In this document: piece after piece, positions 2,342 through 60,179 of the stretch
How the letters are laid out: each line of letters begins with the position of its first letter
Numbering within the stretch: position 1 is the stretch's first letter
DNA from: Yuukianura sp. NJ FZ-2021
Lineage: Eukaryota
DNA length: 64,000 bases
Direction: 5' to 3'
NCBI GenBank assembly: GCA_046563655.1
Contig: CM102288.1
Coordinates: 5,766,001 to 5,830,000 of the forward strand
Program-made: the position numbers and the translations under genes
Notes under the pieces: generated by a model
What the model was told of the DNA's origin: nothing
Databases searched by the model: none
Seen by the model: the letters and a program-made list of their open reading frames with translations, nothing else

Positions 2342-4438
2342 CTACAAGTATTCTACAAGTGTTTGGCGTTTGTCTTGACTGAACACGAAAGCCGTAACTT
2401 CTTGAACGACGAAAACGATTGAGACCAGGACAGTTCCGACGTACAGCACAAACGCCGAAACTGTAAAATCATGATGAAGCGCCAGCGATTGGCTGGCAAT
2501 TGGTTTGTAATGACTTCTGGGCGTAACTGGTATTGAAAAAGTCTGACTAAAAATCCCGCTCTCCAGTAAAATTCGAAATCTCTTCAAAATTACTTCTCCA
2601 CGATCCCATTCACTGCGACTGAAAATCCATGCCTTGGGATGCGATATGAATTCGTCTTTTCCAAAATACAGTTTTTGAATTCGTGCAGCGCCATATTTGA
2701 ATCTCAAGGTCTCCCGCTCTTTTTTCAAATCTTCATTTTCTCCCACTAATATAGTTGAGTTGCATTCCAACAGTTTCGTCTCAGAAACGTTCAGTAAACT
2801 TGTTCTCACGTCTATCGCAGCTTTGATGTTGCGCCATTTCCCGCCTCTCTGATTTGAATTATTGTCGCCAATATTTGAATCATTCCCGCCATGATTTGAA
2901 TTCTCGTTGGCGCCGTTTTGAGCCGACCGAATGTATTTGAAAAAGTCGTTTCTCATGCTGAGTAAAATTTCGTACATTATTTTATCATTGTGTTTGAGTT
3001 CGGTTTCTTCGGGAATGGACCCGGGAAATTCAAATTTCGATTTGTCTTTTTGGTGTAAAATAATTTTGTAGCCCATTTCCACTGCTTGTTTAATTTTTGA
3101 AATTTGAGACACTGGAAGTGGGGCGGTCAAGTCTAGAGTAATGTACGCTTTGTACAAATTTGTGAGACAAAAAGTGATGACCAAAGTTAAAACAAGGAAA
3201 AATTTGAAATTGGTGGGAAATCGATTCAAAAATGAAGAACAAATGGGCTGCTCCAATATTAATTTCCATGTAAAGTAGAATCCGTCAAATAGATTTTCAA
3301 AAACTAAAAATCTTGCTGTCATGGCAACCAAAAAACTGACTGCCAATACTGCCACCCAAACATTCCGTTTTAGCGGTTTCAAAAAAGCTTGAAACGACAA
3401 AAACTTATTTGCGCCATCGCATGTTAAAAAATTGTAAGCTGCTTCAGCCGTGTAGATTCGGTAACTGCCGAGGTGAGGCGACATTCCGGAGATGTCGCCG
3501 CTGGGATACGCGTCCGTCAGTACCGTAAGTTTCCGACATTTCGATGGCTGTTCTGTAACGTATCGGCCGAAACCAATAGGAGTAACGTTATAACCGGTTA
3601 TACTAGAATTCCCGGGTTTCAAACCGGTAAAAATAGTTGACAAAATTTTTTCAGTTTTTGCATCGTGCAACGACTGCTCAACTGTGATTGGTCCGCGTCG
3701 TGCTTCGGGATTGGTTGTCCAAGTTATGGAGTCGGCGCATGACGCAATGAGCAGTCGGTAACTGAATTCCAAAAACTGACGAAGAGTCGTCGGTTTTGAA
3801 AAATGGCGCCAAATGGTTTTGAGAATTTCAAACCTACTATTGGTTGTATTCGACAGCTCAAACGTTAATGACGTGCTACAAGGGTAGGAAGCGCGGACTT
3901 TCAAAATTTTTAGTTCACCAGCTACGTCAATGTTAATTTCAAATGTCGGATTATTTTGAGAAAAAGTTGTAGTTGCATGAAATATTTGTGATAAAAACTT
4001 CGAGTTTCTTAGAACAACCAAGAAAACGTTTTTTCCGTAACACTTTGGAACTGATTGTTTGTCGTTCGCCGAGCATTCTGTCAGCCAAGTAAGCGAAAAC
4101 TCCACCTCAACAATTTGAAGTGATTTGGGCGGGAAAATTACGAAAATGACTACACAGTTGCACCTCGACGTGATCCAGAAACGTTTGATTTTGAAAATTG
4201 TCAAAAAATAGGGTGATTTCGATGAAGAGTTAACACTTTCTAAGTAAAGCAGAGTTGTAACTGGGTAATTTTGGAAGGAAAAAGTCATTGACCTTTGACC
4301 TTGAAAATCAATTGTTATGACACAACACTGGTGATCCTCCATTTCAAATGCTAACAAGTCAGATACATTCCAAGTTTGTGTAATTACTAAACCCATTGAT
4401 AACATAACCAAAACAAAATTTGTATTTTTAACTTCCAT
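2342..4438 (-). CDS. Divergent ionotropic receptor (IR/iGluR-like chemoreceptor), intronless
   Basis: 698-aa ORF with an N-terminal hydrophobic segment, YNFLTC and FLKPLxxxVW before TM1, a pore-like segment (FTWKLILEQ), TM2 followed by LTNLYKAYITLDLTAP, an S2 lobe ending ILLESGIF, and a final TM. Confidence 0.8.
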   Translation of the reverse strand: MEVKNTNFVLVMLSMGLVITQTWNVSDLLAFEMEDHQCCVITIDFQGQRSMTFSFQNYPVTTLLYLESVNSSSKSPYFLTIFKIKRFWITSRCNCVVIFVIFPPKSLQIVEVEFSLTWLTECSANDKQSVPKCYGKNVFLVVLRNSKFLSQIFHATTTFSQNNPTFEINIDVAGELKILKVRASYPCSTSLTFELSNTTNSRFEILKTIWRHFSKPTTLRQFLEFSYRLLIASCADSITWTTNPEARRGPITVEQSLHDAKTEKILSTIFTGLKPGNSSITGYNVTPIGFGRYVTEQPSKCRKLTVLTDAYPSGDISGMSPHLGSYRIYTAEAAYNFLTCDGANKFLSFQAFLKPLKRNVWVAVLAVSFLVAMTARFLVFENLFDGFYFTWKLILEQPICSSFLNRFPTNFKFFLVLTLVITFCLTNLYKAYITLDLTAPLPVSQISKIKQAVEMGYKIILHQKDKSKFEFPGSIPEETELKHNDKIMYEILLSMRNDFFKYIRSAQNGANENSNHGGNDSNIGDNNSNQRGGKWRNIKAAIDVRTSLLNVSETKLLECNSTILVGENEDLKKERETLRFKYGAARIQKLYFGKDEFISHPKAWIFSRSEWDRGEVILKRFRILLESGIFSQTFSIPVTPRSHYKPIASQSLALHHDFTVSAFVLYVGTVLVSIVFVVQEVTAFVFSQDKRQTLVEYL

Positions 4439-5708
4439 TTTTTTTTAATTTTTGATGTCTTAGGCGTCAGAAAGTATGCAAGTTCAAACTTAAACTGCAA
4501 TTTAGTCTTTCTAGGTATTATGTAATTTCTCGATTTAGAAAAAAAAAATTTAGAGTCGCGCTGAGGTCAAAAAAGTTCCAACTCTCCGGGGAAATTAAAC
4601 AAATTCTTAGAACTATTGAAAACTAACAGCTAATCTAAATTCGCTACACAAGTTTCGAAACGAAGGGGTCACCTTTGTCATTGCATGCTGCGAGGAACTA
4701 GGTTTTAATAAGGATGGGAAAGAAATCATTACTCTTTTGAACTAATTCCCCAACTTTGGGAAAAATATACGCTAGTAAAATAAGTTAATACGGACTTACT
4801 AAAATTTTTTAGTTGTTGTTATGATAATCAGCTAGGTAAAAATCCACCAGTATTCTTTCTAGCAGTTATGCTCTTGCCTAACGTATATTATGAGAGCTTA
4901 GCATATGTGCTTGGCAAAGTGAAATTGCGAAAAAGTTCTTGTTTACAAAAAAAACTATACCAACGTAATTATTTTAAGCCGTATTTTATGTTAAATAAAA
5001 TAATTCAAGTCATTTTTTTTGGAGTCAAATCGAAACTTCCACCATCAAGTCAATCCCACCCATTTCCTGAGAGCGCAAATTTTAAAAGCAATTTTGTTAT
5101 GAACAGAGTGCCTTCAGGGTAATATATAAGTTAAGATCCATCTTCCTGCCTGCGCTGTTATGAATTCAGGTCTCAAGGTAAAAAGAAATTGAATTGAACT
5201 AAGACAAAATTAAATGAAATTTAGCTTTTAGCTTTTAGAACTTTAATTTAAGGCTCGAAATAATTTAATTCTTTTTCAGCAGAGGTTGTCCGGCCATGCC
5301 ATTTTCTTTAAACTTTCTGTCCATGAATTTTTTAAAACCGCTTTCTTATTGGCCCATGCCAGTCGATGCTGAGGAGACAAAGTAATTTTCCTAGTGAGCA
5401 TCAACACTTCAATTTTTCTGCTAGTCGTCCATAATACAAATTCAAAACCTAAACGCATCAGTTTTTTTAATTCTTAAATTAATTTCCTGATTGAAAAGTC
5501 GGTGAATATTGATGACCATTTTAGACAGCAAATAATTAAATTCATTTGGTCAATTTTTGCAAAAGGTGAGTCCATTATATCCAGAAAAAAAACAGTCTGA
5601 AATCGGATCTCCTTGGACCATCATTGACAGAAAACGTATTATCCTCAGATTGCTTCTTTTTGAACTCATGAGTAAACTGCACTTTGGTCAATTGCAATCC
5701 AAATAACA

Positions 5709-6946
5709 ATGTCTGCTTACACTGAATTCAACCAGTATTTGAAACTTGGACAATATTTTAACATTTGCCCATACAATTTGGTCTGTATGAAATCAAAGCA
5801 GTGGGCAATGGAACTTGTTCCACTCAAGATACCAAAAAAAGTAAAACTAATATATCCAATACTTCGCATAACTGTGTACATTCTGGCTCAATCCATTCCG
5901 TTACAAGCCATAGCAGAACGTAGTCAGCCTATAAACTTTGCCGCTGAACTCGCACTTGGCGTCATCGCATTCTTTGCATTCTACGCGGAACTACTTTGGA
6001 ATACAGACCACATGGCAGCCATTACGTTTTTCAACAGATTCCTCAAACTTGAGCACGACATACGTTAGTTATAGACTACTCATTTATTTCAGATTAGCAT
6101 ATTTCACACTGAATCGGACAACACTAATTTCTTTGTTTAACAGGTAAAACGTTTGGTGAAAAAATTTGCCGTGAACGGGTTGACAACGTTGTGTACTCCT
6201 ATGTACATATTTTCAAACTAAATATTTACCCGTTCTTTCTGTACATACCAGTAGCCGCTCCTTTAGCCGCCATCGGTGACTTGTTCTTTGTGGGGTTAAT
6301 TGTGCGTGTGATTTCAAGTTTAATCGGAACCAATATTAGCGCAGTAGTTCTCACAAGCGTTGGGGTAACTATTATAGCGAATTTCTTTGTGTTCTGGGGA
6401 ACATTAAGTTTATTTTACATGCTTCTGATTACTACATCCGCTAAGCAGTGGCTCAGAACACTGGCAACACTTCAAGCATCTTGTACAAGTGACATGCAGC
6501 GGAACAAATTCCGTCAGTTGTACAGAGCCATACAAGTATTTAGTGCAATTTTCAATGACAATCAGAAGTGGTGGATTCAAATTGCTTACTGTGGAAACAT
6601 ACTTGTAGTTATTGCAATTTCATTTGCAGTTTTCAAAACTAATTGGCAAGCAAACCCTATCATACCACTCGTATTGACAATGGTGGATATCTTAGTATTT
6701 AGCAGTGGGTTTGTTATTTGTCAACATGTTGTGCATCTGAGAGTATATTCTGAGCGTTACTACACTTTAAAAAACAGTAGCAATTTACCACATACAAAGT
6801 ATGAGAGTAGCTTTAGAAAGTCGTGCCAACCAATTACAGGAAGCGTGGGTGATTTTTTTACAATTTCAAATAGAGACTTTTGTGTTGAAACCTACGGAAA
6901 TGTTGTTCTCAACACTACTCTTAGTCTTTTGTTAACATTTCGCTGA
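5709..6946 (+). CDS. Gustatory-receptor-like 7TM chemoreceptor (2 exons: 5709-6063, 6144-6946)
   Basis: The GTTAGT...TTAACAG intron joins the two ORFs in frame (~385 aa). Multiple hydrophobic helices; C-terminal GDFFTI...ETYGNVVLNTTLSLLLTF resembles the GR/OR TM7 region. Confidence 0.65.
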
Positions 6947-11697: not shown

Positions 11698-12467
11698 AAT
11701 TTTGAAACAAAATTATCACAATGGATCGACATTTTTGTGAAAACTTTAAAATGCAATTTACAAGAGAAATGCAATTACTAAAATTACAAAAACCGCCGTT
11801 CCATTTTGCAAAAACACTTTGTGCTACTTTTTAAAAATGCAGTTTAAACTTTTTTTTTTGCAAATAAAGTTCGAGAACCATACACTTCTTTTTTAATAAA
11901 ATACGCTTTTTTTGTTTACAAGGTCAATTTTATTATTTATTTTCATGATATATTTCTAGAACTAGGTTTAGTAAAAACCTTACCAATCCGAACCATTTAA
12001 ATATGACTTCAAATTGGTAGAGTTTGAGCTTCCGATTTTAAAGAATTTGAGAAGTTCGAGCTAAACAACCCGACGCATCCAACGTGTACGTGACTGTATG
12101 ATGAACCCTCATACAAATACGAGAATCCGAACTTTAGCCGGACCCCTTTATTTCGATTGAAATCAGTTGAAATCGGCGGGAATGCAATGCTTTTGTTCTG
12201 AAAAATCAACAAGTCCGTCTTTTGTGTCTTCTCTTGTTTGCTCTTGTTTGTTACACAACTTGGAACTTGGCTAAGATCGGGTCGTTCGGTGTGGTAAGCG
12301 GTAGTGTTAATTGAAGAGTCACTTCTTGCCGGGTGAGATGAAACGAACAAAGACGGAAGCTGGAATGGCAGGTAAAAGTAAAGCAGCAGCCACATGTGGT
12401 TTAGTGAATTAATTTGACCGACCTAATGTTACGTAATTGATTTCTCTTTCCCATTTTAGGACTGTCA

Positions 12468-15400
12468 ATGGCGGTAGAAGACGAAGTACCCTCTACTTCT
12501 GAAGACGAAGACGAGGAAGAGCAGAAGAAGGATCCCTTTGATCGGGAACGAGAACCGGAAGTAGAACAGTTTCGACAAGATGTCTCCTCCATTCTTCAGT
12601 CTGTTGTAGACAAGTCTACGACAACTTTTGCGACAGGCGGAGAACTGCAAGGAGCTCCGCTGGTTCCAATTCAATTGTTAAAAGTAAGTAACATCCGTTT
12701 CAAGTCTAAGTCTGCCAATTGAAGCTTCATACCAGTACAATCAATGCGTGTTCGTTCTTATTTCTAGACGGGCGACATTGTTTATTTCCCAATCTATGAC
12801 AAAAATGCGCCTGGAATCATCAAGCAATTACAGCAAGCCCCGTTTGGGAAGGGAAAGAAGACGATACTGGACAAGACGGTTCGGAACTCATGGCAGATCA
12901 GGGTTGGCAAAATGACCATGACGTCGGTCAAAAACGTCTGTCATAAACGTTTATGACAAGACCCCTTGTCAGAAACGTCATTTTTGTCAAATTCATTTTT
13001 TATAAAACCGTGCATTCGCGCTCAAATTTAAAGAAAAACCAGTAACAATATGTCTTTATGGTTGGTCCAACGTCCACAACGAACCAATTGTCGGCTTATC
13101 AATCGCTGATTCTGAAGGAAATCAAGCTTTAACAAACAGTATTGACACATCAGGGCATGCGCAGGCGCACACAGCCGAATATTTGAGAACTCTTGCGGAA
13201 AAAGAAATCGACAGATGTGAAACGGAATGGGGCGTCTGCGTCAGAGCATTACTGATTACTGATTACACAGGGAACGTTGCAAAAATGCGTCGTGAGCTTG
13301 AAAAAAATGAAGACATCTCAATTATTCAATATGGCTGCCTTCGAACTTTTTAGAAAAATCGGAGAGCTCTGATACAAGTCTGTGAAGACCATCGAAATGA
13401 GATCGATTCTGCAATTACCAGACTCGTGAATGACGTCAATTTAGCGAATACTAGCAGTGAGAACTGACAGCGGTTATACGTTTTAATCTAATAGCAAGTT
13501 TACAATGTAGGTTAACCGGCAATTTAGAATTAAAGATTTTAATTTTTTGAGGAAAGGTTTCTGACGTTTCTGACGTTTTTGACGCGTTTTTAACGTTTTA
13601 AACGTTTTTGACGTCATTTTCGTGAAAATGACGTCATTTTGCCAACCCTGTGGCAGATTGATTCCAAAGAGTTCAAGGTACGTTAAATTACGTGAGTTCA
13701 AAACGCGGTATGAAAAAAAGTGTCTAATCCTCAGAATTACGATCATCAGAAAACCTAAACCAAGTATGATGAATAGTCACTCCAAACTATACCGCCCAAT
13801 TCACGCTCTTTGCTTTAAATTAAGAACAGATTTATAAACATTAATTACAACAACATTTTATGTCTCCAGATTTTGAATCCAAAATGGGATTCGTATGTTG
13901 CTGAAACAGTCGTGCCGCGGATTGGAGCTGCACTCGGATTAACGTCGCCTTTCACTGCCTCAATCTACAAGTTTCTCCTGTATGAAACTGGTAGTTTCTT
14001 CAAGCCCCATCGTGACTCAGAAAAAGAAGACGGAATGTTTGGCACACTCGTGATTCAACTTCCATCCAAATACTCCGGTGGAGCTCTCCAGGTTCGTCAC
14101 GATGGAAAGACTCAGACTTTCACCTTTGACAATCCAGAAGGCGAGTTCAAAATGTTCATGGCTGCTTTCTATGCCGATTGTGAACATGAAATCGTTCCAT
14201 TGACGTCTGGCTATCGATCGTGTTTGGTCTACAACTTGGTCGTTCCTGTTGACAGCCCTCGTCCAGCTCCACCTCTGGGAGAATCTGAATCGGTAAAGGC
14301 ATTGGTGTCTTTCCTCAGTAACTGGCCTTCAGAACCTGCTCTCATGGGGTACTACTTACAACATAAGTATTCTGCCTCCTCTCTTTCTTCAAAGAATCTC
14401 AGTCTGAAGACAACTGACGGCCAGGTTGCCAGTGTTCTGCAATCCGTCGCATCGCAACTCCCGCTCAACGTCTACGTTTGCCTCATCTCTATCCATATGA
14501 GTGGATCCGCCGAAAGTGCATTCGATGACGAGGGAAACTACGATGGTATTCCATATCGTGGTTGGAACCGAGGGAAACGAGCTCGTACTGTACCAGTCAA
14601 TGTTGGTTTTCACGAAGATGTTGATGTCGAAGACATGGAGCTCGAACTCGAAAACATAATTGGACTCTTCGACCGGAAGAAGTTTCCATATTTTCCTGAA
14701 AACCAGAATTCCCTCACCGTTGATGACACTTCGATTGAAATTCTGCCAGTCGGAATCTTCCGCACTGCAAAACCGGACAACTTATCACTTCAGCCCACTG
14801 GAAACGAAGGAACTGAGCTTCGGAAATGGTACAAAGGGGCCATGATCCTATTTTGGCCATCAGATCGTCATCTTGACGTTCTCCAAGAACTTGGAATCTC
14901 CACTGCCGTCATTAACAAAGACATTTACCTCCAGAGTATCGCAAAGGCCAAGAATAACAAGGCTCAACTCCTGGCCGCTGCTAAGCAACTGCTTCTGCCT
15001 CAGAAAGTAGAAAAGGAACCTCCTAAACCTCGGAACTACTGGATGTCGTACGGTCGTTGTACAAATGCTGCCAAGTCTGAAGGTCCCCTTTTCTACAAAG
15101 ATTTAGGATCATCTGGAGAGACCATTTTCAACTCAATTTGTGATCTCAAGGATCCTAGTCTGATTGTCCAGTTTCTTCAAAAGTTCACCCAGGCTGATGC
15201 AATTGTTGGTCTTTTGCGGAAACAAGTCACAGCTGGAGGATGGTGGGAACAATGCTATGATGAAATTGAGAAGATCCTGAAGAACACCAAAGCTGTCGCT
15301 ACATTTGTGATTAATCTCACTCAAACTCCTGTTGGACAAAACGAAAAACCGTATATTCTGCGTCTCCTCAAGACTTCAGTAGAAACAGTCTTAGCAAATC

Positions 15401-15948
15401 CGAATTCCGAGTCTCGACCCCGGTTTCTCTCTACATTTTGCCTGCAAGCTGATGCAGCTGAGCTAGATGTGACGGAGCTCTTGGCTGAACTAGTATTCGA
15501 ATCAAAACTGCTCAAACCAACGGAGGTTTCCATGGCAATTATGACTTTGATCAAACCAGGCACTCCACTGAAGCCTCTTTGGCATACTCTGGCATCGCGT
15601 CTGGCTGGAGATTTCCAAAGTACGGTGGAAAAGTCATCAAAGGCGGCTTTGGACTGGAAGAGAACTGTATCTCTCGCAGCTCCTTGCAATTGTCAAGACT
15701 GTCAGGACTTTGGTGCCTTTCTGCGTTCGGATGAAGTTAAATTTGAGATTAAGGGGCCAGAGAAACGTCGCAAGCACGTGATTAAGCAGGCAGCAAAGAC
15801 TGGCAACCTTCAAAATGAGACTGTGCGTGGAACTGTACCGTTGCGTCTCGTCTTCACCAAGCTACAAATTCCAGAACTTGAACAGGAAAAGAGAGATGCA
15901 ACTAGACTGATGAACCAACTGTCCCAAGCCATTGGATCTTCGCAGTAA
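12468..15948 (+). CDS. 2OG-Fe(II) oxygenase family protein; exon 2 interrupted by a hAT insertion
   Basis: Exon 12468-12683; exon 12768-12898 continuing at 13659-13677 (QAPFGKGKKTILDKTVRNSWQI/DSKEFK); exon 13870-15948 with YKFLLYETGSFFKPHRDSEK (HxD), ADCEHEI (distal His) and GYRSCLVYNL (2OG-binding Arg); C-terminal CNCQDC. Confidence 0.8.
12899..13650 (+). mobile_element. Internally deleted hAT transposon with transposase remnant
   Basis: TIRs CAGGGTTGGCAAAATGAC / GTCATTTTGCCAACCCTG; 8-bp TSD TGGCAGAT (12891-12898, 13651-13658); internal decayed frame GWSNVHNEPIVGLSI...HTAEYL...NVAKMRREL...YGC resembles a hAT catalytic core. Confidence 0.92.
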
Positions 15949-18526
15949 TCGTTTTACGAATTATGTACATTCTCTTTTACGTCGCTGAGCGATGACAAGT
16001 CAATTTTTGAGTTCCTTTTTTTTTTGCATTTTGTTCACACTTCTTTTTTTGCAACTTAAGTAAATTTTTCAGTTCAGTTCAAAATTCAGATTTCGTTAAA
16101 CTAAATGGCAGTGAACGCAACACCAATAAATGAATTTACAACTATAAACCGAATAATCAGCTTTCAATTTGATTTACTACCTATACTTCAAGTAGTTCAA
16201 GTGCAAAAATTAGCGAGAGCTACGTCATGCACGTCGCGCTTCTGTCGGTCTGTCTGTTTGTAAGACCGCCGGTTGTATCATCTCTCGCAGCAAGAGGCTC
16301 ATCATTCCCGGATCGCTATAACTATTAACCACAAAAACCCGGGACTATTGACAATTGAATAGGCCACTCATTTCGCCAGCCCCTTCTGGGTCAAAGGTCA
16401 ACGTCGACCGGTTGAATGCCGATGTGGTAACTTCGAAAACATCTTCGGAGGCTCCGTAATGTCAAAGGTCAAAATACGCGTTCGCTACTTTCATACACTG
16501 GTTTATTTTGGATTGCCTCCTTCATCCAATTCGAAGGGCGAGTTTTAGGGCTCTCAGGAGGACTTTGGAGGGATTGAAGGGACGACGCGAAAGGGGAACA
16601 GGAAACACGCAGGAGGGAGCGGAGGGTTGCCTGGTGATACCTCCAGTGTAGTCTCAAAATCAAAACAAAGACAAACGGTCGACAGATATCTAAAGAGTGA
16701 GAGCGAAAGTAAGTGATTAATCAGAACAAAAACAATTGTTATCATAGTAAGAACAATGAATTATTGCCGATTTATATTGTGTACTTCTTGTCCTTACCAT
16801 TGGGCAATAATATCAGTCGCAAAAAGTGTACGACCTCGAGTAACCGACGAACTTAGCTAATCAATCACACTGGCTGAGTTAAAGCGGAGTTACTAAGGTA
16901 AGGGGAACAAAATCGGTTGAGTACGGTGTTGTACATTATTCGTAATTTTTGGAAGTCCTTTTTCAGATTTTCGGGAGAGACTCTCGATTTTCCATTTTTT
17001 TTTTGGTCTTGTTGCCATTTTCAAATTTTATGATGTTTCAAACGTTTTCGGCCGTTTCGGTTTTTTTTTGGGATCCTGCCTTTCTTCCGCTATTGTTGAA
17101 TAACGGAAGCAAAATTTAAACTTCTTATTTTGTTTACTTACAATTAGCGTCAATAATGTAATTTCTGTGCTAGTTTAACGAGGCATTATTAACATACGTT
17201 TTGATGTTAATAATTCTTCGGTAGTAGATTGTTGTGGTTACGCCACGTTTGTAATCCTTACTTCAACGCAATTAACTTTTGGAATCCGGATGTGAAAAAT
17301 TTGGTTGACGTAAGGTTTGCATTGTGTTTTCTGTACTAGTATCAGTAGTATGCGAGCGTCCCCTCTTCTTCTATCATTTTTCCGCCAAATTAAAAAAATT
17401 AAAATATTTTACGGCGGAGTTACGATTAGTTAGGCATGAACATGGCAAAACCTATTCCTGAACGTACATTACAATTATTAATTCACAATACAACGGGAAC
17501 TGTGGATACAACGATAGGCTTTGAACTTGACGTCAACGCACGACAGGTGCGTAGCGAGGAATAGGTACTCTAATACTCTGATTCCGTGACGGAACTGGGC
17601 TGAAACACACCTAAGATTTTGGAAATGTAACTGATAATTTTGCACTCAAATATTTCAAAATTATTGGAACTCTGACAGCAACATTTGAGATGAGAGTGAG
17701 TAGAACTGTGAAAAATCGACGTTTTCGTTGGTTTTACTTAAATTCCGGACGAAATAAGTTTCCAGTCAATGAGTCAGAGAAATCAGCTGAGTCTGAGGAT
17801 TAGTTTTTCCCTCAATGAAAACCTTTTAACAAACAAACAGAAAACATCAAAGTGTCAAGTCCTTGTATCTGAGTCACTTTTTAAGAACATACATAAGTGA
17901 CTAATGATACGTAACAATCATAATAATCTCATTCTCATTCCCAGTATCACGAGTAATTATTTTGTCGTTTTATACAGGTTTCTTCCCAATCCTCGACTCA
18001 ACAAAGAAAAGTGCGATCATCATTTTCATTACCTAAGAATTGGAATTGGACAGAGTTAGAGTATGACCTTCCATCATCAAGGAGACACAGGAACTGGAGA
18101 CTGACAAACAACATTCGCTAGAGTATCGATTCGCAGTTGGACTAATTGTTAATTTGGAAACGAAGCGAAGATAAGAACCGAGATCCAGTAAACCGCCTAC
18201 CTCACCTAACTCAATCAAGTTAGTTACGCCTCCCACCGTTCTTTGTTCTGAACTCAACGGACTAATCGTCATCGATGGCCATCGTTGTTGTCGTTTGCAG
18301 AGTTGTGCGAAAAGATGAAAAACTAAACACGAAACGTTTGGATAGAACGTAATGTTGGACGATTTTAATCGCGATCTCAACTTAATTGTTTCATAGCATT
18401 CCACGCGTCCTAAGTACTGTGCAAGTGAACTGTGAAGTTAGTAGTGATTTCTTTTAAGGCAACACTTAGTATTACAACTATTGAGTGCTGCAACTGGACT
18501 AAAACTGAACTTAATACAGTGACTGA

Positions 18527-28977
<10,451 letters not shown>

Positions 28978-29583: not shown

Positions 29584-30594
29584 TTAGCTGTCACAAAATT
29601 CAGCCATGTAGTCAACCCCATCCTCTTCCGATTTAGCTGCATGTTGCACCGCAAAGTGAGCCTAGACAATTCCAAAATTTCAAAATTCTAGTTCAAAAAA
29701 CTTAATTTTCAAAATTCTAATTCGAAAGAAAATCTAAATTCCAAAAATATTGAAACCATTATGCCCTAAACTCACCCGCATGTTGGCGACCTTGCTGAAA
29801 CTCTTTCCGCAAGCTGGACACCGTGTTAGTCCACGGTGAGCCTAAATTAAAAAAACGAAGGTTTTAGTTTTTCGGAGATTCAAAAAATTTCCAATTTCAA
29901 AATTTGGAATTTACCTTCATGTGATCTTTTAGCGACCTGAGATGGACGTACGCCTTTGAGCAGAGTGGGCAGATGAACGGAGAATTTGGATCTCCGGGGT
30001 CGTTGAGATTCGACGTCGAAATGTTATTATTTTTGTTGATTCTGTGTGGATATGGAATTGTTGTGCCCGAAGGACTCACCGCCGCGACCACCGCGGCGGC
30101 GTCCTTATTCCGCTTTTTCTTAGTTTTAGTTACACCCTCTTCCGCGATCTCTTCCTTTGGGGAAGCAGTGTCCCCTTCCAGAAACTGCCGCGTGAGGCTG
30201 AAACAAGGCACTTGAACGTGGAATGGATTCGAGAGAAGTGGTCTCGCCTTGACAAGCTTCGGCAACGGTCGTTTTGAAGCCGGTTGGAGCTTGGGTGGCG
30301 GCGGAGTTGTGGCGGGAGTGCCATGTTGTGGATTGATCTTCAAAACGGCCCGCTGATGTCGAAATGGCGGGCAGTGATTGTACGAATCGAAAGTGGCGGG
30401 CAGCAGTTTCGGTGGTTGAGGGGAGGAGCTACATTTGATTGGTTGAATTGGCCCTATCACGTGGGTGTTGTCAAAACCGTGGCGGGAAATTTCTAGCAAG
30501 TTGTTGGAACCGTAGCCATCCTCACCCTCACTGTCCTCACAACACTCCTCCTCCAGCTCCAAGTCATCTGGAATTACGAACCCACTTCCACTGT
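29584..30594 (-). CDS. BTB gene alternative 3' module F: two C2H2 fingers (exons 29915-30594, 29776-29841, 29584-29661)
   Basis: Phase-1 acceptor; FICPLCSKAYVHLRSLKDHMK|AHRGLTRCPACGKSFSKVANMR|AHFAVQH...FCDS*. Confidence 0.85.
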
Positions 30595-31927
30595 CTACGA
30601 GGGAAACAACAGTCAACCACAATCCTACGGTACTAAAACTGATACGGTACCGAATACCGTACCGGAATACGGTACCAGTAAAAGTACCGAAACGGTACGG
30701 TGCCGTACCAGGAGATGAACAAGCCTCAAGGAAGCAGAAACTATTCGATACGAACCAGCCCTTAAAGTTTTTAGTCTACTCACCTCATCTACAAGTTTTA
30801 AAAATTTAAATAACTTTTAGAGTTTAACGTTAACTTTTTTTTCAAGGTAAGAAATTGAAACTTTTTTTTTCAAGGTAGGAAATTTTTTGAAACCGGAAAC
30901 AATATTTTACTGCGCGTTACACGCTAGTGCGTGTTATACGCGGATGAATAGGGTAATGTCAATCTAAAATTTATGTTAATTAAAATGAAAAAAAAAAGAC
31001 TTTGACCTTGAACATTGTAAAAAAATTTTTTTTTTTATAAAGGCAATTGATTTCGAACAGTTGCTGCTTGTACCGACATTGAAAAAGATGAAAAATGAAG
31101 TCACCTTAAAAGTCAACTTGTAGTTGAGGTTTGAGAGAAGGAAGATGAAGTGATCGTAAGATTGTAGCAGCATCTACGTTCCAGCAAAGGTTACCACCAC
31201 CACCAACAGCCTACACTAAGATATGAAAAGAGGCAAAAATTGAAATAGGAAGAACCAAACCATGACCTCTTGACCTCTCATCCCACTTCCCCCTGCACTA
31301 TTCGCATTTTGAAAATAACATAGCCTTACTATCCCAAAACTAGAACGTGTATTCCAACAGGAGGCCCTTTTACACTTCCTCAAAAATCTCCAACTTTTTC
31401 GAAGCTTCTACAGAAAATGAAACAGAAATTGATAGTTTTTTTTGTTTCTTTACAAAAGTACAAGTTTATTTCTTCAGCGGACTCGAAAAATTTTTTTTTT
31501 CAAAAACTGCAGAGTAATCCGAACATGAAACCAAAGTTACCATAAAACGTCCAAGAAACAACGAAATCTCCTGAACAAACTCCTTGAAAGTTATAAACTT
31601 TGCGATTTGTGAATTATATGACCAGTGGAAAATACTTGTTGATGAAGAGAGATTCTCAAATAATATCCTTAGATAAATAATCCTTGACACTTTGAGTAAA
31701 AACGTAATACCGTGAATAAGTCTTGTGTCCACTCTTATCCTAATGACTCTCAATCCTAAACCTAAACGTTCTGACTCCGATTTACACAAAAACTACTTCC
31801 GAAATTTCCTAAGTTCTGCTAACTACCGTAATACCCCAAATATTTGCACTTTCTTTTCCTAAATTCCTCGGTGGAACAAAAAAATTAAAAGATCCTAAAA
31901 CAGTTTCAAAACTTTTGAGTAGAATAA

Positions 31928-46062: not shown

Positions 46063-49000
46063 TCAGTCGACGACGTCCAAGTGACGATATACACGACGGA
46101 GTTTCTCCTTTTTATTTCGATTGTTATGTTTTCTCCAAGGCTTCTCACCCGAAGTCGAACTGTAAAGATTTTACATAATATAAACATTAAAATAATAATA
46201 ACACTTTATGCAACAACCTACCCGGTGGTAGAAGATGAAGCACTGGAAATAAGGTACTGCCGCCCTTTGACATGTGATGACGAAGTTTGCACGGAAAAGA
46301 AGGCCGAATCCAAGTTGTCCTCCACATTCACTTTGCGCAGAGTCGGTGCCTATGAGAAATGAGATTTTTACGATACTTGTGAGATTTACTGAAAGAGATT
46401 TTGTAGATGCTGGCAGCGATGCAGCATCATGCTGCTTCACATGATAGAACTAAGCTATTTTTTTCTAAATAGGTTGGTAAGTAATAATACCTTGAGATTA
46501 TTAGCCGCGACTGAGGTGTTCACCGCCTGATTTTGTTCTAACTTGGTATCCCGCTGTTCCAGACAGTCGAATTGAGACGGAGGAGCAAACACATTTTGCT
46601 CAACCGTCGGTGGTGCGTGACAGTAAAGAAGTTTCCCATTGACGTAGTCTTTTAGCATAATGCGACACGCCCTAGATTCATCCGGTATTCCTCTAACCGT
46701 CATGAATCCACGAATAGCTGCAATCACAAGTTATAGACCATTAATGGATTAATCGATGACATTTTTATGTTCTGCATACCTGCATAAGAGCTGAGAAGAT
46801 CGTGGTGAGTGAACAGTTCTGGCAGGATGATTCCATACTTGCGTTCTAACACTCTTTTGCTAATACGCTTAGCAAGGAGAGCCATTCCTGGATTGTAATT
46901 GGTCAAAGTGTCAATTGGCAGTATTCCACCAAGCACCATTTCGCCTTGACTTCCTCCGAATGATGGCATCACCAATCCTGGACAGTCGCACAACATCATG
47001 TCATCTTCCACAAACAATGTCTAGAAAAAAAGTTCAGTTGAGTTAGATTTTAACGTTTTCATTTGTTCAATGTGTGTTCTGAATCTTGAATACTGATCAG
47101 TTATCAGAATTTGATCAGTCATTAGATTCTGATCACACATCAGGTCTCATCGAATGAGAGTATTAGTGAGTACCTGGAAATGCTTAGTTTTTCCTGGAGT
47201 GGCTGAAACGGACGTTTTCTTGGATGCCATGAGTGAGTTGATTGTTGAACTCTTTCCGACATTCGGGTGACCACAAAATCCAACGATAAATAATTCATCT
47301 GCCTCTGAACTGTCACCTCTCTCCTTCTGACTTGATTTTTTCTGGTTTTGGCTTGGCTTGAAAGTTTTGAGGAATTCGATCAAACCAAGTCTGTTTAGAA
47401 TTGGTTTTGGCTTAACTCCTGCTTCCCTTGTATCAATTGGCTCATCATCGATTGATTTATGTTCATGCTCTGGTTCTTCATCTTCATCTTCACCGGATTC
47501 GCTGCTCCCGTCATCGCTTCCGCTCAATTCATTCTCTTCCTCAACAGTCTCTTTCTTACTGAAGTTCTCGTTTTCAGTTGCAGCAGAATAGAAAGCATGA
47601 GGTAAGCCGATAGAATCGAAGTAACAACTCCAGTGAAGTCGCTGAGCTTCTGTAAGGAAATCGGCTTTGTTGATGAGCAGTACATTCCGTTTTCCCATTT
47701 CTCTAACGTAGGCCTCCAGATCTTCACATCTGTAGAAAAACAGAGAATTATCAAAAAGTTAATATAACTTCAATAGTCAATGTCGGCTTACCGATAGAGT
47801 AAAGGATTCCGGGCATCCACGATTTGGACGATGATTTCAGACTTCTCAATTACTCTCCACAGTTGACGCCACACTTCAATGTTTCTTTCGAAAGGAGTGA
47901 TACCGTCTCGTTCCTGGAGCTGGGCCATATGTCTCCTCCAGTTCAAAAAAGCTTCTTTCTCCGCCTCATCCAGTTCTTCCGCTGTCATTTCCTTTGACCA
48001 CTGTGGCCTCCTGGGAACAACAACCAACTTCCGTTCAGCTTCTGAAAGCAGGTTTTCAACATCTCCCAGTGGATCGGCAACAGTCAAAGCTACGAATTTA
48101 ACATTGAGCTTCTCAGCTGTGAATTCCTTGTCAGCCAAAGCCGCTGTAGCGATGAACTCCTCGTAAGAACTTTCTTGTGTCACGGATTGGAGCCCAACAG
48201 AAGACTCTGCTTGAGAATGTCGATCCTGCAAGGAAGTAATCGGAAACCAATCAATTACATCAGATTTACCACTAAGAATCACACTTTGGAGTAGGGCATC
48301 CAAGTCCGGACTTTAAGTCCGGACTAGTCCGGACTTTTTTTTAAAACTTTGGGTCCGAGTCCGCGGACTTAATGGCGAAAGTCCGGACTCAGATTGAAAA
48401 TATGGAACAAATTCGGAATCGGAGAAAATGACTCAAAAAATAATTTTTATTGCGCGTAAATTTTAAATCGTATCATTTTTGAAAAGGCTTATTGTGCCAC
48501 TCGTTGCAAAGTTTCGAAAAAGCGGCAGAATGTACAAAAGATCTCTAGAGAGGACACACGTCCCTCTAAAGAACAAGGACTTCGGCCCAGCATTCTCATT
48601 GGCAATTTCCCAGGCTACGAATTCAAGGGCGACGAACAATTATTCTGGAATTATCTGCATCCTGGAAAAGTGGACAATGATTTTGGCGACATTTTTGCTA
48701 CTCCAACAAAAAACAAGAATTGCAATTGCAACCGAGGATTCCATCTTAGCTTGTGCCATCGTCACATTCAATGTATCTCCCCACCGATAAGTGTAGAATA
48801 GGGGGTCGCAATCCGGATTTTTGACGGATTGGGATAATCTTAAATGCGGATTTCAAAACTTTAAATTCGGATTTAACGTTGTATTTGAGGGCATTGGTGG
48901 CAGTTTCAAGAAGGAAAAGGATTTTCACAAAAAAAAGTTTCTTTTGGTTTTCTTGAAAAATTTTTAGCATCATGAATACCCAAAAATTAAGATTTTTGGA

Positions 49001-49542
49001 TACTCGTGTATGCCACATACTTTTTTTGTGCTTCTAAAGGTATCGAAAATTTTCTTCCATGTTACGGAAAATCGCTAGAAATTCGGAAAAATTCGGAATT
49101 TTTTGAGACACCTCCGGATTTGCGAACCCTAGTGTAGAATCGGAAAGAGTATTTTCTGCCTTGGGATATCTTTGAGACAATGTTAGGGCCAGTTGAAACG
49201 ATGACACATTGGAAATTTTCTCTTTCTTACACACACATTTCCAGATAAATGATTGTTAAAAAAACCGGCGAACAAAATTTACGCAGTTTGGTTCAGATAT
49301 ATGCGGTTTTAGATTTGAAGTTCGAAGTCCGAAAAGTCCGGACTTTTGTCAGGCTGAGTCCGCTAAGTCCGAAGTCCGGACTTTTCTGAAAAGCTCCGAA
49401 CTTGGGTGCCCTACTTTGGAGTAGTTAGATTCTTGTTTAGTCTTACCGTGTACTGTTTTGTGCCCCACTTCGGTTGTCCACTTCCCTTCTTCGCCAAAGA
49501 TTTGCCTAAACTCGTATGCTGTGATTTACGAGTTCGCCCCAT
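46063..49542 (-). CDS. LSG1: Large subunit GTPase 1 (circularly permuted GTPase), multi-exon
   Basis: TPFERNIEVWRQLWRVIEKS...QIVDARNPL; INKADFL (G4); GHPNVGKSSTIN (G1); VSATPGKTKHFQ (G2); LCDCPGLV (G3); LKDYVNGKLLYCHAPP; C-terminal KPWRKHNNRNKKEKLRRVYRHLD. Confidence 0.95.
48292..49413. mobile_element. Non-autonomous hAT element in LSG1 intron 1
   Basis: TIRs TAGGGCA(T/C)CCAAGT; 8-bp TSD CTTTGGAG (48284-48291, 49414-49421); subterminal AGTCCGGACT palindromes. Confidence 0.9.
48799..49131. mobile_element. hAT-type MITE nested in the previous element
   Basis: Ends TAGGGGGTCGCAATCCGGA / TCCGGATTTGCGAACCCTA; 8-bp TSD GTGTAGAA (48791-48798, 49132-49139). Confidence 0.88.
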
Positions 49543-55089: not shown

Positions 55090-58000
55090 ATGGCTTCTAC
55101 AGGCAAACAATCATTGGTAAGAAGCTAATCCTAAATTATACAACATGCCTTGTGTAATTCCAAAGATAACTTATTTAGTTTGTAGAAAATTGAAAAATTT
55201 AGAATCGCACCAGTTACAGCTTTGATAGGGTTTTGGCCCACGTCCTTTAGGTTGGAACTAATCTTTTAAACTATTTTCAGGAAATGAACTCAACAGAATA
55301 CATGAAAACAGCACTGAATACAATATTTGAAGAGGAGTACTGCTCAAAACGGCTGGAACTTCAACAGCAGCATCATCTTCATATCCGACTGGAAGCGACG
55401 CAGGCGCCGTCTAGTTGTGGTTCGAAGACGTGTGACTTGGAACAGAAAATTCTGGAGAATATTCCAAACGAAAATGGACCATTATCAACAATTGTCCTTG
55501 GAGATTCTGGATCTGGGAAATCTTGGTTAGCCTTCAAATTAACTTCTGAATTGTACAACTCTAAACTACTCCAATTTGAAAACAAGATCCCAGTATACAT
55601 TCCGTTGGGGCGAGTTGAGAAAATGATTAATCAGCTCAAGACTCAAGAGTTGGGTAAATTCAAGTCAGATATTTTGTTTAGTTACATAATGTATCATAGG
55701 AATTACTTTCCAACTAAGATTCATGATGGAGAGTTGATCAATTTATATTTGGATTTGTGCAAATCCGAATTAGTTCTGATTTTGGATGGATACGATGAAC
55801 TGCGCATTAAGTCCAATTTGTGGGAACAAAACCAATGGAACACCAAAGACTTTAATGTTCGAACAATTGTGTTTTGTCGACCAAATGCATTGGTTGATGT
55901 TGAAATTTCGGACATATTTGGACTATCTAAAAAACAGCAATGTAGTTATGAGATAATGCCATTAGACAGAAACATTATAGAGAAATATATTAGCCAAGTA
56001 CCACTGTTTCTACACTCGATTGAGTACGATTCGAAAGTTAATGACTCTTGGATGATGACCAAATGTGTTACGAAAGATTGTCCAAAATGGGAATCGGCGG
56101 AAGAGGATTCAGAGTACAAGTATTGGTTTCTCGATAGACTTCCAGAATTGCAAGGCTTGGCAAAAAATGTATTCATTTTGACTACAATTTGTCAACTACT
56201 GCCAAAATTAGTAGAAATTGAGAGAGAAGCTACTGAGAAAAGCTATATAAGCGACGACTTTGCGCAAAAGTTAGATGAAATTTGTAGAACGGAAGTTCTT
56301 TTGTATGATAAGTTTACGCAAGCGTGGTTCAAATATCAAATAGACAGAATGGAACCAACTGGACATTCGCATGTTCTTTATGAGAAACGACATCTTTTGC
56401 GTCATTACATGGCTGGTTATGCACAAAATTTGGCCTTACGATATGCCTACTTGAACGCAGGAAAAGTTTTGAATGGTGAAATTTCACAAGGTGAAACTCT
56501 ATTTTGGAATTTATGGACTCCGTGGAGTCCAAACTCAAAGAAATTTAGTAGAGAAAAGAATTATGAATTGGAAAAAGTACTTTTTCCACAAAATGAAGAA
56601 GACACGGACGAAGAGCGGCTGGAAAATCTAAAATTTTTGAGAAATTCGAGTTTGTTGATGTACAATTCTAGCGTCGGAGTATTTAGTTTTTTGCATTTGT
56701 CTCTCTTGGAATATTTCGTCTTTGTTAATCTCCGTGGTGCACTAAATTACTATTCGAATTGGAATAGGAAAAGAGAAGGAGTCTACTTTCTAATTAATCA
56801 AAAGGATATTAATGATCCAGGATTTAGCGAAATTTTGTTTATGCTTGTTGGGAGAGCCAAAACGGACGTAAAATTTCAAAACGCTTTACTAAAAACTATT
56901 AAAAAGTCAGCCACACTTCCTGGAATTGAGCAAATGGCGTCCAATGCTTTGACAATTTTAAATTTGAGCGGTTACAGTTTTTCAGGAAGAAACAAAGAGG
57001 ATGACAATTTTCAAAATATTCAAGTCCCTGGTGCAAATTTGAGAAATTCCATTTGCGGCAATAGTGACTTTAGCGGAGCAAATTTTCAAAATGCGAAGTT
57101 GAATCAGGGGTGGTTTCAAAAGTGTAAATTCCAAGGTGTAAATTTTTCAAACTGTTCCTTTGGACAAATACCGCCAATAAGTCTTGGTTCAAATGAATGC
57201 GTTGTGCACTCCATTTTGACTTATTACGTTGAGGATTTCTGTTATATAGTTGTTTGCTGCCAACAACAAAGTGAAACTTTGAGAGTATTTGGTATACTGA
57301 ATGTAAAAATTTACAAGATGAGGCTAAATTTGGAATTAATAGATTCTAAATCAACTGATTTATTAAGACTAACTGGTGAAAGCGACGATTATTCGTTTTT
57401 CTTGATAGAAAACGCAGGCAGCATAATTTTGTTAGTTTTTGTATCGACTTTTAAAAGAGCAGATTCAAAGGAAACAACGTTCCCTGATTATGTTCTGCAA
57501 TATTGGTACGAATTGAATGCCAACTTGTTCATTGTAAGTTCTGACGAATTTGCTGAAAATACGTTGACTTGGGACTTTTTATTAGACTATGCCAACCAAT
57601 TCGATTATGTGCAAAAATATATTGTGTTTTCTCGAAACGATGAGATTATGCCATTTTTTTGCGACAAGGAAATGATCAGCGCTACTTCAAAGTTGATTTG
57701 TTTAAAATTTTTCTGGTTGTCGTTTGGACGATTCAAAATGCTAGTGTCTATCCGGTACCAAGATGTAGACGTAGGAGCTGTTGTTTCGAAAGTCGCTTTT
57801 GCCGTTTCAATGTTGCACGGTGAGAAGAAACCCGTTTTATGGAAGGAGGAAAGTGAATCTTTCGAATTGTTTATTAGTGGTGATCATACTAAGAGGACAA
57901 GTCAATCGGTTCTGGACACCGAATACTTTTTTGGGATACTTTATGATGGAAGGTGGCGTCTAAGTCTGTTAAGCAGAAGTGATATTTACCTATTTGATTT

Positions 58001-60179
58001 ACGAAACAATACGTTTCTGGATGTTTTGAAGAACAACACAGATTTGAGCTCGACTATCAAGTTCCTAGAACAGTCTAACACCAATCAAATTATAGATTCT
58101 GCGCAAATGATCTACGGATCTCCAGAGTGCAAGCTTATATGGGAAGCGCCATTCATAGTCGGTGAGAAAGACGTGAAGTGTTTTATTTCTGACAACCTTA
58201 ATTTCATCGGAAGACATTCAATACCTCACAACTCAATTGAAGTGTTCGACTGTAGCACCGGCCAATTACAACACACTCTATTCGTGGAAGATAAAACCTC
58301 AGCTACATTCGTTTACGCTAACAATAAAGAGATAGAAGATTCTGACCGTCGTCGCACAACGTATTTGTTGTACGTTTTTGAAAAATGTTTGCATTTTGAA
58401 GAGTTGAAGGGTGGTACAAGTTATGCAAAAGCTTCGACGGTGCGAGAACACGAATTTCAAAACTACCATTCAGACGACGGGCTATTATGTGTATGTGTAG
58501 AGTTTAATCTTGGCAATGAAAGCTGCCGTTGCTCGTATTTTGCGAATCCATACTTGGTCGAAAGTAGTAATACGTTAAACGGCAATTGTCGCAGTTATGT
58601 TCGTCTTCCAGATGAAAATAGCCAAATGGTTAGTGCTCGTGTTAAGAATGTCCTCATAACTCCGAATAAGTTTCTCATTCTGCACTGCTATATTACAAAG
58701 ACGCTTGCCCGCAATGAACATAGACTAGTTGGGTATGATACCACTGGTACAAAATTTGTTCGCATTAAAAATCAGCTAAATTGCACAAATGTGGATGAAG
58801 ACGTCTACATTTGTTTTTTCTTGTGTCAACATTCCCAAAGACTTGTTTTTCAAAAGAACGCAAATATTTGTTGTTGTACCATCACTGAAGCCGGTTCTCA
58901 TGAAGAAACTTACCTAGAGTTGACTTTGAACTTATCATTTGAATCAAAGTTAGCGGCAACGACGTTTGTATATGACCCGAACTTTGAGGACATTTCGTAC
59001 ATTTCTTACTTCGGTACGAACATAATTGGCGTTTGGAATCTTAGCGAAAATACATATAAAAAACTTACCGTTATGTACGATAAACAAATTCCCCTGCGTA
59101 AATCCCATCTTTGCACTGTTCTCTTACAGAACACAACACTAATGCGAGGTTACTACGATTCTGATGTTTTTTACGCATTGCCTGTCAAAAAATATAGCGA
59201 ATCACATAGCGACATTCCGGTACACATTTCATCTTCCAAAAAACTAAAATGGATTGTAGCTCAGTTTGAAAACGGTGACATTTGTATTTTAGATTCCTTA
59301 CAATTGGACACACTCTTTGTCTTTCTTGGGTTCTATTCTGCGTTCAAATTTCAAATTTTTGATACCGTTTCGACGCAGGTTCGTGTTTTACTGTATTCTA
59401 AAACGGGAGATTTAAGTTGGCTTACAATCAATTCAGAGTCTCTGAGGAAATGTTTTGAAACCGGGAAATTAAAAAAATTTGATGACTGGAAATTAGATAA
59501 AGGTCAAAGTCCAAGTTCAAAACTTTTGTTGAAGGAAGTTGACATATCCTACTCCCGGTGCATGACTCCGAAGGATTTGTCACTGCTAAAATATCTTGGT
59601 TCAGTCGGTTCACCGTCACAGGGTGAAGAATATCGTCGATTTTGTGATTTGTTTCTACCAGTAACAGACTGCAAGTATTCTATTTTAACAACTTGTGACA
59701 ATGCACAACCAGTGGACTTGACCAAAAAATGGACAGTGACAGTTATTGCTAAAAAGAGCAAGTTTAAGCTACTGCGTAAAACAGTGTATACTGCAACGGA
59801 CCCACATGCAGCTTTATTAATTGAAGGAGTTTTACATGGGGGACACTTCGTTGTTAAAGCAGACTTAACTCGAGATAGTGATAACAATGTAAAAATCCGA
59901 TGTGAGCAGTATACAGGAAAGAAGAAGTATGAAGGAATCGCTAAAAAATATTTTGGAAAACAAATTGAACTTGTAAAGAACAATGGGATCAAACTCTTAA
60001 AAAATATCTGGGTAGATACGTATAACCCACAGTGGAAATATAATTTACTCTTTCACAATTGTAATAGTTGGTGTAGAAAAAAGCTGAAAGTGTTGGGACT
60101 TGAACATAAGTTTCGACCTAAATTGTACCGAGTTTTTGCCAGTCTTCCGCAAGATTTCGAGTTACAGAGACTAATCTAA
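55090..60179 (+). CDS. NACHT (STAND) NTPase with pentapeptide repeats, beta-rich repeat region and C-terminal permuted papain-like domain
   Basis: Probable short exon 55090-55116 (MASTGKQSL|GTAAGA) spliced to a single ~4.9-kb exon from 55281. Walker A GDSGSGKS; Walker B LVLILDGYDE; FSFLHLSLLEYF; ASNALTIL followed by pentapeptide repeats (GANLRNS, SDFSGANFQNAKL); C-terminal HAALLIEG...YNLLFHNCNSWC. Confidence 0.85.

Follow-up and report, generated by a model that had tools for sequence, protein, structure and literature searches.

The window analysed here comprises 64,000 nucleotides (nt) of Yuukianura sp. NJ FZ-2021 (assembly GCA_046563655.1, contig CM102288.1, positions 5,766,001 to 5,830,000), and all coordinates below count from its first letter. 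A transposon of the hAT superfamily was found in exon 3 of a gene encoding a protein with a 2OG-Fe(II) oxygenase domain, and we consider it very probable that the window carries a recent insertion allele of this gene, in all likelihood a null one. The parts of the host gene and of its reading frame were as follows.

12338-12371, + strand: putative exon 1 of the host gene, with the ATG at 12338 and the donor CAG/GTAAAA, read by eye
12460-12683, + strand: exon 2, with the donor AAA/GTAAGT; a contig of the public run X5 spans exon 2 to exon 3
12768-13677, + strand: exon 3, 150 nt when empty (12768-12898 plus 13659-13677) and 910 nt here
12954-12956, + strand: TGA, the first in-frame stop of the unspliced reading, 19 codons downstream of the Gln in the interrupted motif
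13870-15948, + strand: last exon, 692 codons plus stop, which encodes the 2OG-Fe(II) oxygenase domain as well as a long C-terminal part

The position of the element relative to the encoded protein was evaluated in an alignment of 103 rows, made up of the host and those 102 of 120 listed homologs that gave a BLASTP match across the site. The element enters just after the Q of the motif V-R-x-x-W-Q-[IL], in which V is kept in 93 of the 103 rows, R in 102, W in 94, Q in 79 (with E in another 22) and I or L in 95. This strong conservation of the segment across homologs indicates that the insertion is in coding sequence and not in an unrecognised intron, and an earlier note on this DNA, which had placed the element inside a coding exon where it splits a conserved motif, is thus borne out by 102 distant homologs that align across the site. 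When left unspliced, the reading frame runs through exon 3 to ...VRNSWQ and passes into the element two bases into the Ile codon, and 20 in-frame stops lie across the insert.

All exon borders of the host gene, which were read by eye, are GT-AG and the joined reading frame is open. The last exon is free of stops, as had been noted before, although its length is 692 codons plus the stop and not 691. Residues 34-120 of this exon matched PF13640 (2OG-Fe(II) oxygenase) with an expect value (E) of 1.6e-6 and 29.4 bits against a cut-off of 27. Four invariant columns of a 37-row alignment (H135, D137, H193 and R203, numbered by its first row), which we take to be the metal- and cosubstrate-binding residues of the oxygenase fold, hold in exon 4 of the window. 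A search among 5.8 billion clustered proteins returned 294 homologs of the oxygenase at E <= 0.001, the best with 31% identity; those with a name were mostly bacterial, together with two Bradysia flies and one green alga. The gene has three spliceosomal introns despite its mostly bacterial named relatives, and it may be an old horizontal acquisition or a patchily kept eukaryotic gene. In a profile search against solved structures, two designed helical-repeat chains matched the C-terminal region (E 7.7e-4 and 2.6e-3), and no match was obtained over the segment around the insertion point.

The element itself, with its target-site duplication (TSD), is composed of the following features.

12891-12898, + strand: left TSD copy TGGCAGAT, from sequence reading and the joint 12890->13651 with its 8 ambiguous letters
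12899-13650, + strand: hAT-superfamily transposon, non-autonomous and internally deleted, 752 nt, 39% G+C, recognised by inverted ends, TSD, transposase remnant and subterminal repeats
12899-12916, + strand: left terminal inverted repeat CAGGGTTGGCAAAATGAC, 18 nt, including the candidate donor GT at 12903-12904
12927-12978: left subterminal repeats ACGTTTNTGAC, three on the - strand (12927-12937, 12940-12950, 12968-12978) and one overlapping on the + strand (12947-12957)
13006-13353, + strand: hAT transposase remnant, open over 115 codons and the longest inner frame, from protein search and pairwise alignment
13548-13623, + strand: right subterminal repeats, six copies of GACGTTTTT-like units with a 9-11-nt period, and three exact copies of ACGTTTNTGAC
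13633-13650, - strand: right terminal inverted repeat, the reverse complement of CAGGGTTGGCAAAATGAC, 18 nt
13651-13658, + strand: right TSD copy TGGCAGAT, from sequence reading, including the candidate acceptor AG at 13655-13656

The TSD is exactly 8 nt long because the bases flanking its two copies differ, and its left copy is host exon sequence, which completes the Trp codon, spans the Gln codon and opens the Ile codon with its first two bases. The two 18-nt ends are 100% complementary and start with CAGGG. Over the 64-kilobase window, CAGGGTTGGCAAAATGAC had two matches only at up to three mismatches, compared to a mean of 0.06 in shuffled sequence, where none of 100 shuffles reached two. 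The subterminal unit ACGTTTNTGAC was matched seven times in the window against 0.17 expected (0/100 shuffles reached seven), with 7/7 matches in the element ends, and the arrays are mainly in opposite orientation at the two ends. The ends of hAT elements are short inverted repeats of about 10-25 nt that begin with CAG or TAG, their target consensus is nTnnnnAn, and the subterminal repeats are the transposase-binding sites in Ac/Ds. Compared to this consensus, TGGCAGAT, a single site only, has the A at position 7 and a G instead of T at position 2.

The remnant at 13006-13353 matched 43 longer proteins at E <= 0.001 (best E 2.4e-25, identity 39-54%), many of which have 520-600 residues and carry PF04937 (DUF659) and PF05699 (hAT dimerisation), a few of them also PF02892 (zf-BED). 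The named relatives of this DUF659-bearing transposase were mostly from frogs, turtles and squamates. Aligned to a relative of 548 residues, the remnant covered residues 156-256 only, with 52% identity over 104 residues (E 5e-33). This segment is what the window copy shares with the full hAT transposases; everything outside it is missing, including the BED finger and the C-terminal dimerisation domain. Searched alone against Pfam, the remnant gave DUF659 at E 0.013 with 15.6 bits, below the cut-off of 34.7, and DUF1450 at E 0.0053. At 13027-13041 the window reads YGWSN where the 548-residue relative has DGWSN; the D of this motif is possibly, on our assumption, the first catalytic aspartate, and if so, the remnant would be mutated besides being truncated. 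As its sequence reads, the element cannot encode an active transposase. Taken together, the 8-nt TSD, the short CAG-initial ends, the subterminal repeats and the remnant place it in the hAT superfamily as an internally deleted, non-autonomous element, and the assignment to hAT made in the earlier note is upheld by the same features.

In its construction the element resembles the Ds elements of the Ac/Ds system (hAT) found in maize exons. Shared are the cut-and-paste mode, the short CAG-initial inverted ends, the 8-nt TSD, the subterminal repeats at both ends, an inner part that is a deletion remnant of a transposase gene, the insertion into a coding exon and the potential donor-like GTs in the element end. 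Ds splicing from maize transcripts was shown experimentally in the literature of about 1987-1991, whereas the window element is known from its DNA alone. It further differs from Ds in its animal host, probably a springtail, in its own end sequence and repeat unit ACGTTTNTGAC, and in belonging to the DUF659-bearing branch of transposases. In the portions of two papers considered here, Ds is described as an internally deleted derivative of Ac (PMC12235515; PMC3260210).

The sequencing data show that the element is one of a family. In run X1, described below, the summed word depth at the element ends was about 13,000, compared to 185-884 over the gene; this value is not a copy number, but the element ends are clearly much more abundant in the data than the gene, and many contigs of the runs contain them. 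The other copies of the family vary inside, as indicated by loose ends (13029, 13448/13453 and 13492) together with a skip of 190 nt at 13148->13339. A metagenome scan with the 18-nt end gave 23 loci, none of which matched the element over more than 29 nt and none of which matched the transposase remnant by tblastn. All 23 loci were rejected as chance or unrelated matches. In one of them (L010), a second inverted copy of the 18-mer at up to three mismatches was part of a longer inverted repeat running outward, and not an element terminus.

Parts of the locus were present in five public runs, all guessed to be DNA, and the contigs of four of these were compared with positions 12000-16200. Runs X1 and X2 represent one sample, which holds the locus best, while X5 comes from another study under another organism label. 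An empty-site joint (12890->13651), which skips 760 nt (the element and one TSD copy) and at which 8 letters fit either side, was found in X1 (depth 272, side of 32 letters), in X2 (depth 31, side of 32) and in X5 (depth 4.3, side of 37). Since exact empty-site DNA occurs in two studies, the insertion is, as far as sequence can date it, young, and it is apparently not fixed. Its recency, which the earlier note had also proposed, agrees with these contigs as well as with the perfect ends and TSD. The X5 contig of 642 nt contains exon 2, a divergent intron and an uninterrupted exon 3, with 15 of 150 and 16 of 131 nt differing from the window, so that a related organism appears to carry the gene without the element.

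At 12845 and 12857, the only X1 contig placed immediately to the left of the site departs from the window, which suggests that the empty site belongs to a separate haplotype and is not an excision product. hAT excisions usually leave footprints; a somatic excision product was rejected as the source of the empty site, given the exact joint with one TSD copy and no footprint, next to the differences at 12845/12857 in the neighbouring contig. Further joints near the native introns (for example 12379->12458; 12696->12760, with 68 other letters between; 13685->13858; and 13687->13867) were rejected as splicing, as they lie off the exon borders, and were read as divergent introns of other haplotypes or species.

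The same runs gave two observations on the diversity of the samples. When grouped by likeness to the window (99% and above, 95-99%, 90-95% and under 90%), the X1 contigs numbered 178, 140, 93 and 43, and in runs X1, X2 and X4 many sites had part of their depth carrying another letter, which suggests that the best-holding sample contains pooled individuals, high heterozygosity or close paralogs. In addition, the left end of the hAT element in X5 (12899-13107) differed from the window by 11 letters and one gap in 209 nt, and the transposon is therefore more alike between X5 and the window than host exons 2 and 3 are (12547-12890; 15/150 and 16/131 nt differing). This likeness may reflect recent activity in both organisms, horizontal transfer or a paralogous host contig.

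From this evidence we propose that a non-autonomous hAT element was cut and pasted into exon 3 and duplicated 8 nt of its target, and that its identical 18-nt ends and subterminal arrays would suffice for mobilisation in trans by a transposase encoded elsewhere. Transcripts of the filled allele would probably keep the element and end prematurely, and with the read-through frame stopping at 12954-12956, the gene copy would most likely be a null allele or at best a weak one. Because the uninterrupted exon 3 coexists in the best-holding sample and in a second, more distant organism, the insertion seems unfixed, and the intact downstream frame would reflect its youth and not a rescue. A recent knockout allele had been the second option of the earlier note, and it is the one that fits the perfect ends and TSD as well as the empty-site contigs. 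Several points weigh against a segregating null allele. The null status is deduced from the stop codon only, and a GT-AG pair that would restore the frame exists, so that some rescue is possible. Junctions of the filled site were absent among the longest contig pieces listed. The empty-site joints were called at a likeness threshold of 85 with sides of 32-37 letters, and repeats or other organisms can yield such joints. Finally, the sample holds several haplotypes or copies, and the empty site could be that of a close paralog instead of an allele.

An alternative explanation, which we regard as unlikely, is that the filled copy undergoes other aberrant processing, in which exon 3 is skipped (12683^13870) or one of the weak GTs is joined to the AG at 13656, 13671 or 13869, giving altered and probably inactive proteins. 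The arithmetic of the locus would allow it: when exon 3 (150 nt when empty) is skipped, exons 2 and 4 join in frame with the terminal stop as the sole stop, five GTs could be joined to the native acceptor at 13869 without a shift of frame, and 11 of 352 GT-AG pairs keep the frame and avoid stops. The enlargement of exon 3 from 150 to 910 nt also speaks for it. The skipped product would, however, lose the segment with the nearly invariant T, D, R and W, and where splicing is intron-defined and introns are short, retention of an insert is more usual than exon skipping.

It is also conceivable, but in our view very unlikely, that the GT at 12903 serves as donor and the AG at 13655-13656 as acceptor, that the protein with two more residues works and that the transposon is becoming an intron. 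This had been the first suggestion of the earlier note, which linked leaky rescue to its second option, and the coordinates and arithmetic given there were reproduced in the window: removal of 12903-13656 takes out 754 of the 760 added nt, leaves 6 nt (two extra residues) with the frame kept and no stop, and creates a piece of 21 nt (13657-13677), translated as IDSKEFK and followed by the native donor at 13678. The element 3' end (...CCCTG) has no AG of its own. The acceptor looks usable: it has C at -3, and 13 of the 20 upstream positions are pyrimidines (native acceptors: 17, 15 and 12). The branch-like TGAC motifs pointed out earlier were also present about 25 and 45 nt upstream of the AG, at 13629-13632 and 13609-13612, both of them within the subterminal repeats of the element.

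On the whole, the sequence speaks against this explanation. The candidate AGG/GTTGGC matched the consensus (MAG/GTRAGT) at 5/9 positions, compared to 7, 8 and 8 for the donors of the gene itself, and has T at +3 where all seven native donors have A (three of this gene and four of an LSG1-like gene, the latter read by eye aided by protein alignment). A pyrimidine (C or T) at +3 was shared by all nine GTs in exon 3 and the left element end. As the candidate pair is one of the 11 among 352 that keep the frame and avoid stops, such a pair comes as no surprise, and by arithmetic about 1/8 of random 8-nt TSDs would be expected to give an in-frame AG (at TSD positions 2-3 or 5-6). In a predicted RNA fold of 12860-13700 the element ends pair (-233 kcal/mol, z -5.6, none of 20 shuffles as stable) and the donor GT would be buried inside the stem, which is a mild point only, as co-transcriptional binding could escape the stem. 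The seven native introns that were read measure about 60-190 nt, and the candidate intron, at 754 nt, would exceed them in length 4-12 times. Across the 20-residue segment of host residues 118-137, all 102 homologs are free of insertions and a single one shows a deletion, so that a gain of two residues would be without precedent in the family. With empty-site DNA in existence, nothing demands that the filled copy function. Given the weak donor with its T at +3, the 11 workable pairs and the homologs free of insertions, the suggestion of a newborn intron or of leaky rescue in frame gains no support here.

Published cases of intron gain speak for the idea. In the parts of these sources that bear on the matter, transposons with inverted ends and TSDs at their junctions are reported to become introns when splice-like signals lie in or beside the element (PMC11282704), non-autonomous DNA transposons with inverted ends account for most of the intron-generating families that have been classified (PMC12130899), and the cases named in section 6 of the latter are from a diatom, two dinoflagellates, a grass and a fungus. 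With such introners (Micromonas, Aureococcus, dinoflagellates and others) the window element shares the class of non-autonomous DNA transposon, the inverted ends and the TSD, and its candidate splice sites would follow the layout described in passages of both papers, in which element and duplicated target supply one splice dinucleotide each (PMC11282704; PMC12130899). Introners, however, exist as many near-identical spliced copies in unrelated genes with consistent sites and transcript support, whereas the window contains one exonic copy of the element, its candidate donor is weak, and the empty site occurs in the same sample. The word hAT has no occurrence in the main text of PMC12130899, its datasets apart, and the titles and abstract openings of the papers listed gave no hAT-derived intron gain in a hexapod, a point on which the supplementary family lists of PMC12130899 may bear. 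The boldest form of the idea, an intron caught at birth in a hexapod and still polymorphic, and thus an animal hAT 'introner' in the making, seems very improbable to us. In that case, the identical ends would give each copy, in either orientation, a GT four bases inside, about 1/8 of the TSDs would supply an AG in the right frame, base pairing between the ends of the element in the pre-mRNA would bring the two sites close to each other, and exonic insertions of the family would be partly spliced out and tolerated.

An origin outside the germ line, as an assembly chimera or as a somatic insertion in a few reads, is highly improbable, for although the empty site has a depth of 272 in the best-holding sample, where the pieces listed lack filled junctions and copies of the element family far outnumber those of the gene, a chimera would not yield an exact 8-nt TSD around complete and perfect ends, and contig pieces break at repeats, so that missing junction pieces carry no weight.

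Elsewhere in the window, an LSG1-like GTPase gene was found on the - strand at about 48226-46072, with the springtails Folsomia candida (51%) and Orchesella cincta (47%) as the closest named matches, which points most probably to a springtail, or else to some other early-branching hexapod, as the source of the window. A 10-nt palindrome, AGTCCGGACT, occurs in six copies against 0.03 expected (0/100 shuffles reached six), in two clusters about 1 kilobase apart (48303-48389 and 49335-49382) at the 5' end of this gene; the clusters may mark both termini of a further small mobile element or represent a group of binding sites. On the + strand, 55251-60179 is an uninterrupted frame of 1642 codons with NACHT (E 2.1e-5) and pentapeptide repeats (E 7.2e-7), an unusual pairing, and the intron-free frame is unusually long for this window. 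No Pfam family was matched at E <= 0.001 by the 700-codon open frame at 2342-4444 (- strand) or by the open frames at 6128-6946, 26885-27634 and 29897-30775.

As it stands, the locus is an ordinary, probably segregating transposon insertion that breaks a gene, and it provides a first description of one non-autonomous hAT family in what is probably a springtail genome. It is also a clean test case, as the site exists both with and without the element and the possible transcripts would differ in length by +760, +6 or -150 nt. The cases of intron gain described in the portions of the literature considered here are mostly from protists, algae and fungi, not from arthropods. If the in-frame junction were true in carriers, polymorphic, datable and spliced insertions of this kind would represent the missing first step of transposon-driven intron gain.

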